The translations under genes were made by a program, and so were the position numbers. A DNA stretch of 63,709 nucleotides from NCBI GenBank assembly GCA_050331235.1, contig JBHJHA010000034.1, forward strand, positions 1 to 63,709, given 5' to 3'. The notes below the pieces were generated by a model. It searched no databases. It had not been told where the DNA came from and worked only from the letters and a program-made list of their open reading frames with translations. Below are positions 35,326 to 35,544 of the stretch, in pieces. How positions within the stretch are numbered: the stretch's first letter is position 1; every line of letters begins with the position of its first letter. This DNA comes from Leptolyngbyaceae cyanobacterium (GTDB lineage: Bacteria; Cyanobacteriota; Cyanobacteriia; Phormidesmidales; Phormidesmidaceae).

Positions 35326-35544
35326 TTAGGTGATCTCTGCTTCTGAACGCTGCTGCATAGACCGTTTACGATTCGCTTGTGCCCGACGCTGTTGAGTTAA
35401 AGACTCGCGCGCCTCCTCTTGAATTTCCCCACCATTCCTGGCGGCAATTTCTGCTTCGCTCCGCTCTAAAGCGGATTGCTGACGATTGTGTGCCTGATGA
35501 CGTTGCTCGGCAATGTTGTAGCGGGCCTGATCCTGAGCAGACAT
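35326..35544 (-). CDS. 72-aa protein with two tandem IF7 (GifA)-like motifs
   Basis: MSAQDQAR-x11-NRQQSALERSEAEI and IQEEAR-x11-NRKRSMQQRSEAEI; RBS GAGG before ATG 35544. Confidence 0.7.
   Translation of the reverse strand: MSAQDQARYNIAEQRHQAHNRQQSALERSEAEIAARNGGEIQEEARESLTQQRRAQANRKRSMQQRSEAEIT

Follow-up and report, generated by a model that had tools for sequence, protein, structure and literature searches.

What might a protein of only 72 amino acids do when it carries, twice in tandem, a relative of the arginine-bearing half of a glutamine synthetase (GS) inactivating factor (IF)? This question is raised by P0001, which is encoded on the reverse strand of a 63,709-nucleotide stretch of DNA from a Leptolyngbyaceae cyanobacterium (contig JBHJHA010000034.1), referred to as the window throughout (Table 1). 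The preliminary description of the locus, made from the sequence alone, had read P0001 as a bivalent GS inhibitor rewired from nitrogen control to a stress or dormancy signal.

Table 1. Positions of the features of the window that are discussed in the text
Feature	Position	Strand	Remarks
P0001, 72-aa two-unit IF7-like repeat protein	35326..35544	(-)	pI 8.4, net charge +1, GRAVY -1.55
Unit 1 (residues 1-33 with R8, R15, R21, R28)	35446..35544	(-)	IF7A model E 4.4e-8
Unit 2 (residues 39-71 with R46, R53, R59, R66)	35332..35430	(-)	IF7A model E 0.0042
Ribosome-binding site GAGG	35553..35556	(-)	kept in alignment of relatives
Direct-repeat box TCTTCA-N5-TCCTCA, 11-bp period	35693..35712	(-)	score 23.3 versus 99.9% background of 12.3
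Putative -10-like hexamer TAAGTT	35679..35684	(-)	11 nt past second repeat half
Cassette ORF2, 63 aa	34941..35132	(-)	motif YLxQP..NP..LERC; no family match
Cassette ORF3, 65 aa	34658..34855	(-)	motif FSPxDDxYP..QPF; no family match
PEP synthase/PPDK-family gene and two Usp genes	30436..34289	(-)	box at 34355-34374
Box (29930-29949) and downstream DUF1816 small gene	29930..30232	(+)	box matrix, Pfam
Hsp20 ending at IXI/V-type motif, no tail	26130..26597	(-)	box at 26711-26730
Single-domain receiver (CheY-like)	37284..37673	(-)	in relatives between CBS-PAS-GAF kinase and cassette

A tandem relative of the N-terminal half of IF7

The open reading frame is indeed a tandem repeat, as had been described: its two units share 14 of 33 residues, and none of 20000 shuffled sequences matched its internal-repeat score. 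Both units possess, in register, the three arginines Arg8, Arg21 and Arg28 (R8/R21/R28 and R46/R59/R66), a numbering that we take to be that of the essential arginines of Synechocystis IF7 (GifA). It is consistent with three arginines that are invariant at these positions in all 16 canonical IF sequences. The designation R110 in IF17, as given in a review, agrees with it as well (PMC6316151). The ATG codon of P0001 lies 8 nt downstream of the GAGG sequence; a longer protein of 105 amino acids beginning at an in-frame ATG (35643) is improbable, since the homologs share the downstream Met and since at one locus (L006) the frame is shut one codon upstream of the P0001-type Met. The close homologs (n = 10; 72-84 amino acids) have two units in every case, and the P0001 gene evolves under purifying selection (dN/dS of 0.06-0.21 in 9 of 21 pairs; dS is saturated in the remaining ones).

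A Pfam scan of P0001 gave no match, and the NCBIfam model IF7A (NF052599) matched it twice over model positions 1-34 of 66 (E 2.7e-10); the score of 40.3 bits is below the cut-off of 70, while the host gifA product reaches 95.2. A profile of the family matched that of canonical IF7 over 36 columns (profile-profile probability 97.1%). The kinship with IF7 proposed in the preliminary description is hence borne out, and it is a homology to the N-terminal half; the absence of the C-terminal half (the IQGK/YDRS part) had likewise been recognized correctly. The AlphaFold model of P0001 is a single long helix (pTM 0.46). A PDB sequence search with the family profile and with host IF7 gave no match and revealed no IF-GS structure; the ESM Atlas search led to a single hypothetical cluster from cyanobacteria (0.76) and to structural matches with short helices, which serve as leads only. 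Among the matches from a search of sequencing runs, the one with a full match is a stromatolite metagenome, and RNA runs are not listed.

P0001 is small and hydrophilic like IF7. However, IF7 is a basic protein (pI ~10.2; 9.3-11.7 in 16 of 16 canonical IFs), whereas the repeat family is neutral to acidic with a median pI of 5.0. The IF7 units carry charges of +2 to +5 and those of P0001 -1 and +1; the average unit has a net charge of +3.1 in IF7, +0.05 in close relatives of P0001 and -2.5 in distant members. The Lys/Arg at position 19, the mostly hydrophobic residue at position 18 and Gly34 of IF7 are not retained in the repeat units, and a family-specific Arg15 stands where IF7 has His15. With IF17 (GifB), P0001 has the IF7-like helix in common, while both the DUF4278-type N-terminal part of IF17 and the glutamine riboswitch of its gene are lacking. 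An NtcA site precedes canonical gifA genes (10 of 10); in agreement with what had been noticed before, neither a strict nor a relaxed NtcA site is present in the 200 nt upstream of the P0001 gene. Since it departs from IF7 in length, charge and regulation, P0001 should not be filed as an IF7 protein despite its IF7-like sequence.

The recognized classes of GS inactivating factors are two, IF7-like and IF17-like (PMC6316151). In the host, a canonical gifA with an NtcA site, distinct from the P0001 gene, is located on contig C16, and gifB on C28; an Rfam glutamine riboswitch is found only before gifB. The host glnA is located at G000:C35:59015-60415. Full IF7/IF17 proteins scoring above the cut-off are present in 33 of 35 repeat-bearing genomes. 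The C-terminal part of the host gifB occurs twice in identical form at contig ends (G000:C28:25-216 and C108:1-117), which is probably an assembly overlap.

The repeat family and the case for inhibition of glutamine synthetase

Rather than being an isolated IF7 duplication, P0001 is part of a cyanobacterial family that lacks annotation. A broad profile detected this family in 50 of 401 sampled cyanobacterial genomes (in one of them via single units only, and in none of the 217 genomes of twelve lumped families) and in 49 of the 152 genomes of the host's own family. Its members have two or three units; across the repeat proteins (one to three units), the GRAVY value is -1.47, 36% of the residues are charged, and aromatic residues are almost absent. 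A protein search retrieved 114 family proteins, all of them unnamed, hypothetical or uncharacterized, and all organism-named matches among them are cyanobacterial. Of their 227 units, 224 contain Arg8, 208 Arg15 and 214 Arg28, whereas Arg21 is found in 53 and missing in 174. All three IF7 arginines are combined in 50 units, and they are present in both units of 10 of the 114 proteins, P0001 among them. P0001 alone has a pI >8, and it is the family member most like IF7. Its clade is the sole one that keeps all three arginines and is the least acidic; among its closest relatives, a group picked by likeness to the query, 21 of 22 units have the complete set. In the ortholog from genome G422, which is accompanied by the same gene cassette and promoter box (see below), Gln and Thr occupy position 21, so that Arg21 is gone from both units and must be dispensable for the role of the cassette in that genome.

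Proteins of 162 amino acids (P0030-type) initially resembled four-unit forms and were rejected as such; they represent upstream-extended calls of an 82-aa protein. In addition, basic IF7-like tandem arrays were observed at four loci [L071 (G359:C41), L072 (G207:C6), L073 (G209:C3) and L074 (G287:C1)], with several copies of 40-52 amino acids devoid of the C-terminal half and four copies each in G359 and G207.

How do these data bear on the proposal that P0001 is a bivalent GS inactivating factor? Each unit would dock onto the GS dodecamer via Arg8, Arg21 and Arg28 and close the enzyme down, so that ATP would be saved, independently of NtcA, whenever the box regulon is active. The homology to precisely that half of IF7 which holds the three arginines, together with their conservation in the closest relatives, argues for it. 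The natural basic 40-52-aa copies, which lie beside gifA or alone, suggest that half an IF7 may suffice, and a side pore of Gram-positive GS that holds two regulator tails (PMC9249791) suggests that two units could be used. In a tree of the units, the canonical IFs form one branch (100/97) separate from all repeat units; it attaches among the unit-1 sequences of the clade of P0001, but with 31 columns and an unsettled bootstrap the tree gives nothing firm on direction. Finally, a repeat gene lies 2.5 kb from glnA-gifA in 1 of 30 genomes (G237); we reject linkage to glnA as a rule, since many other repeat genes and glnA are on separate contigs. At the G237 locus (L108; G237:C3:4558000-4568500), the gene order is repeat gene, TlyA-like, DUF29-like, apcF-like, glnA and gifA; the TlyA-like neighbor of the repeat gene is found again in G047 and G002, where glnA is not nearby.

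Several observations weigh against this proposal. IF binding to GS is electrostatic, and the loss of any single arginine abolishes it (PMC6316151), yet the units are neutral to acidic and are devoid of the IF7 residues at positions 18, 19 and 34 named above, and the G422 ortholog dispenses with Arg21. Moreover, the host and most repeat-bearing genomes already possess a full IF7/IF17. GS inhibition was therefore not upheld as the main reading, in view of the neutral units, the loss of Arg21 across most of the family and the presence of gifA and gifB in the host; we consider it rather unlikely that P0001 is a bivalent inhibitor.

A member of the family is encoded by Synechocystis sp. PCC 6803, namely Ssl0467, annotated as an unknown protein. 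It has a two-unit build like P0001, scores 35 bits against the profile of P0001's close relatives (none of 2000 shuffles was as high) and aligns with IF7A in two stretches (E 1.6e-6). It is nonetheless distant from P0001 (pI 4.6; Leu/Val at position 21), and pairwise BLASTP between the two gave no alignment. L039, its 90% cluster-mate, has neither box nor cassette. For exponential growth, darkness, absence of nitrogen, 42 C and stationary phase, in this order, the reported read counts are 1766, 37, 414, 300 and 270 for ssl0467 and 2641, 3962, 301, 176309 and 61920 for gifA (PMC4195498). The ssl0467 count is lowest in darkness, an observation that concerns the dormancy signal proposed for P0001, although Ssl0467 is distant and L039 is box-less. 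The Ssl0467 protein was detected under each of the four growth modes and changed little (-0.4 to -0.9), while the changes of IF7/IF17 were -2.7 to -7.7 (PMC9175036; values taken as log2 ratios). The nitrogen-starvation and NtcA ChIP tables of PMC5714215 do not contain ssl0467, which speaks against inhibition of GS by its product. Gradient sedimentation placed Ssl0467 in the top fractions F1-F3 and GS in F11-F14; since IF17, the positive control, was itself apart from GS (F5-F7), co-sedimentation is a weak test (PMC8136920 supplement). According to a review, GS is fully active in ammonium in a gifA gifB double mutant of Synechocystis (PMC6316151), and this despite the presence of Ssl0467 in all growth modes. 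Ssl0467 does not behave as an IF; as it is distant, its behavior need not hold for the clade of P0001. In the literature covered, one paper names 'ssl0467' in its main text, inside a list.

The same data touch upon another explanation, according to which the repeat proteins are partner-free, LEA-like hydrophilins that shield proteins or bind metal via His/Glu faces. Like LEA proteins and hydrophilins, P0001 is highly hydrophilic (GRAVY -1.55), the number of units is variable, distant members are His-rich, and Ssl0467 is free in the gradients (PMC8136920). Three near-invariant arginines and a fixed unit length are not what one would expect of such a protein, however; the Pfam LEA profile matched neither P0001 nor 11 repeat-type relatives, and the reads of ssl0467 are lower in stationary phase, heat and darkness (PMC4195498). 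We regard a hydrophilin function as highly improbable.

Promoter box, gene cassette and candidate regulators

The direct-repeat box that had been noticed upstream of the P0001 gene is real, with a score far above background (Table 1). The matrix used for scoring it was derived from 17 boxes that precede other island genes in relatives; the general form of the box is TCCTCA-N5-TCCTCA, and it is conserved in the aligned relatives of P0001. The box is likely the site of an OmpR/RcaC-type regulator. A TA, which was outside the search pattern, recurs at a constant distance downstream of 15 of the 17 training boxes; this spacing is the one expected for a putative -10 element behind an activator site. 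The P0001 promoter escaped detection in a sigma-70 consensus scan. In the host genome, 16 box matches reach a score of at least 17: four of them are those of the window (upstream of hsp20, the DUF1816 gene, ppsA and the P0001 gene), and another three lie on contig C69 beside a gene for a REC-Trans_reg_C-Hpt-REC-REC regulator. With the same box before hsp20, ppsA/usp and the RcaC-type regulator, the membership of P0001 in a regulon of stress and energy genes, which had been surmised before, is sustained.

Among the repeat genes at large, the box was detected in 13 of 38 upstream regions (one gene is counted twice, as gene and as operon leader, and one match is marginal) and in 3 of 20 of a second set; the upstream regions of gifA yielded one marginal match in 12. 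A strict NtcA-like site precedes 7 of 24 box-less members versus 1 of 13 boxed ones, and an NtcA matrix gave 8 of 24 versus 3 of 13. The NtcA-like sites of the box-less members fit two regulatory modes, the order of whose origin they do not determine. Upstream of four box-less members (L015, L019, L029 and L034), an NtcA/CRP-like palindrome is situated between -71 and -82 and precedes a second conserved word like CGAAAATTGTG. At L111 (G283:C9), the repeat gene is the second in an operon with a DUF1830 gene, which is divergent from a gene for a CRP-family regulator; the box is present before both.

The P0001 gene is the first of three small genes, being followed by ORF2 and ORF3; six further close loci have ORF2 after the repeat gene, and five have ORF3, and the order repeat gene-ORF2-ORF3 is common to families f1 and f7. 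ORF2 and ORF3 stand for two conserved small-protein families without Pfam or NCBIfam match (examples in relatives: L008:1187-1592, L075:2146-2343 and L076:1821-1994), and each has one weak second match in the host (C47, C16). The islands of the relatives contain genes for Usp, Hsp20, PEP synthase, phosphofructokinase, HoxE-like proteins and a CBS protein, as well as an extra ATP synthase operon. Judged by this content, the signal to which the regulon responds may be a shortage of energy or oxygen.

Such neighborhoods could mean that P0001 is a helical protein which, together with ORF2 and ORF3, regulates a different enzyme of the regulon, be it the N-type F1Fo ATPase, PEP synthase or phosphofructokinase; the order of ORF2 and ORF3 with the repeat gene is kept in both f1 and f7. 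The cassette runs straight into the extra ATP synthase operon in G410 and G422, precedes the PEP synthase gene both in the window and in G424, and has a phosphofructokinase gene nearby in G422 and G273. But the downstream enzyme varies between islands, most family members stand alone in unrelated neighborhoods without the box, and a search of the host gave one beta-subunit match (57%) and no HoxE match. A regulator of this kind appears very unlikely to us.

Which proteins might read the signal? In G424 and at L009, a gene for a CBS-PAS-GAF kinase is directly upstream of the cassette, with two receiver genes between them in G424. The host ortholog of this kinase (69%), a protein of 1304 amino acids, is encoded on C116 (C116:5113-9024), and the gene for the REC-wHTH-Hpt-REC-REC regulator on C69 (16878-18680, within the region G000:C69:16000-19400) is divergent from a boxed gene for a 129-aa protein of no known family. 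The C69 regulator and the C116 kinase, both encoded apart from the island in the host, are candidate controllers of the box regulon. The arrangement resembles an RcaE/RcaF/RcaC-type phosphorelay, which likewise comprises a kinase, single receivers, a REC-Trans_reg_C-Hpt-REC-REC regulator and 11-bp direct-repeat boxes. Unlike in that system, the kinase has a CBS-PAS-GAF input, and control extends to hsp20, usp, ppsA, hox and the ATPase genes; we did not find the sequence of the box described.

Other genes of the window deserve mention. A 63-aa open reading frame (36221-36412, reverse strand) combines a double-glycine leader-like N-terminus with a twice-repeated core (NFD.LRRENL.KDA); it has weak bacteriocin/RiPP-leader matches only (E 0.004-0.16) and is possibly a peptide precursor, for which no modifying enzyme is visible. 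The region 37875-39456 (reverse strand) encodes a 322-aa protein, which possesses an N-terminal globin and a C-terminal part with a CPGC motif and no Pfam match, and behind it a MarR-family regulator whose tail is Cys/His-rich. Broken transposase-like open reading frames are present at the edge of the island (40463-41601).

The link to Hsp20 and its implications

A first sign that the repeat units can be fused to Hsp20 came from two f7 genomes with units at the Hsp20 end. A junction query (the Hsp20 C-end plus units) matched in 43 of 251 genomes of another family, f7, corresponding to 17 of 67 genera, and every match begins in the Hsp20 part and extends across the junction to unit 1 or further. 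At all 12 of the fusion loci examined (out of 45 places), one or two units follow in frame directly after the IXI/V-type motif; the same box is present at 11 of these 12 loci, and ORF2 or ORF3 is found within 1.3 kb at five. When compared with the profile of P0001's close relatives, the fused tail reaches 42 bits, a value that none of 2000 shuffles attained, and Arg21 occurs in none of 21 fused units. The AlphaFold model of the fusion is of low confidence. A search for longer relatives of P0001 found none, a blank that is uninformative since the Hsp20 fusions exist.

In the window, the boxed hsp20 gene lies 9 kb from the repeat gene, and its product, the better of the two host matches to the fused Hsp20 (43% vs. 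31%), stops where the tail would begin. Given that the two parts are fused elsewhere under the same regulation, the window contains the split form of a gene pair. A known protein offers an analogy: in the cyanobacterial NKBG-sHsp, the IXI/V motif is directly followed by a charged tail, an arrangement also seen where the repeat units are fused, and this short acidic tail keeps client complexes soluble (PMC12925178). The tail of NKBG-sHsp has about 10 residues and is taken here as an analog and not as a homolog; the fused tails reported here comprise 33-75 residues, are IF7-like and also exist as a separate gene.

Tentatively, and with somewhat less than even confidence, we favor the view that P0001 works with the co-regulated Hsp20 as a detached tail and does not serve as an off-switch for GS. 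The CBS-PAS-GAF kinase, the CheY-like receivers and the REC-wHTH-Hpt-REC-REC regulator would activate the genes behind the box upon a shortage of energy or oxygen, and the regulon would produce Hsp20 and P0001 together. P0001 may be disordered by itself and form amphipathic helices on its partner via R8/R15/R28 and a Leu/Met face; it could then join Hsp20 oligomers or their clients and hold these complexes soluble. The hydrophilic, charged nature of the units and the lone helix of the AlphaFold model are consistent with such a role, and so are the reality of Ssl0467 as a protein and its position in the top gradient fractions (PMC8136920).

This preferred function in partnership with Hsp20 faces objections. 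Fusion and co-regulation indicate a shared process and not contact, and a fusion could be read-through of regulon neighbors. The near-invariant Arg8/15/28 point to a specific partner, beyond the needs of a generic solubility tail. Most family members are stand-alone and box-less, apart from the window, just 2 of 13 island loci contain Hsp20 (most of the remaining loci are short), and the 20 kb around the G422 cassette contain none. ssl0467 is not heat-induced (PMC4195498). Lastly, P0001 itself, with the only pI >8 among the 114 proteins and, like nine others, the full set of IF7 arginines in both units, comes closest to IF7.

Another possibility is that the units dock onto GS via Arg8 and Arg28 without inhibiting it, and either compete with IF7/IF17 or, when fused, bring Hsp20 to GS. 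The family-wide retention of two IF7 arginines upon loss of the third, the fusions to Hsp20 and the NtcA-like sites before 8 of 24 box-less members, a hint at nitrogen control, are in line with this notion. Against it stand the single Arg substitutions that abolish the interaction between IF7 and GS (PMC6316151), an acidic GS site that should repel acidic units, and, with the weakness of that test noted above, the sedimentation of Ssl0467 apart from GS (PMC8136920). We judge non-inhibitory docking to be distinctly unlikely.

A still broader conception would unite these threads: the arginine helix of IF7 might be a portable GS-docking module. Reused as tandem copies, either free or as part of an Hsp20, it would recruit the chaperone to the GS dodecamer or protect GS against IF7/IF17, and its control would lie with an undescribed CBS-kinase/RcaC-type regulon; the Arg-complete clade of P0001 would have kept or regained bivalent inhibition. 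We consider this conception, as a whole, unlikely; if true, it would establish a third, nitrogen-independent class of small GS regulators that was overlooked even in Synechocystis (Ssl0467).

The role of P0001 has probably changed relative to IF7. In the literature covered, which does not extend to subscription papers, we encountered no account of tandem IF7-like proteins, of the box or of the Hsp20 fusion. The tandem family represents a third, widespread architecture of the IF7 helix whose members databases list as hypothetical, and since it includes an expressed protein of Synechocystis, Ssl0467, it is directly testable. The conserved promoter box and the candidate two-component regulator are defined here for a stress/energy island of mat cyanobacteria. 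Should the neutral, Arg-complete P0001 inhibit GS, then a net positive charge and the C-terminal half of IF7 would be dispensable, and a shut-off of GS would be possible outside NtcA control; should it not inhibit, then the helix of an inhibitor would have been co-opted as a tail or partner of a small heat-shock protein.
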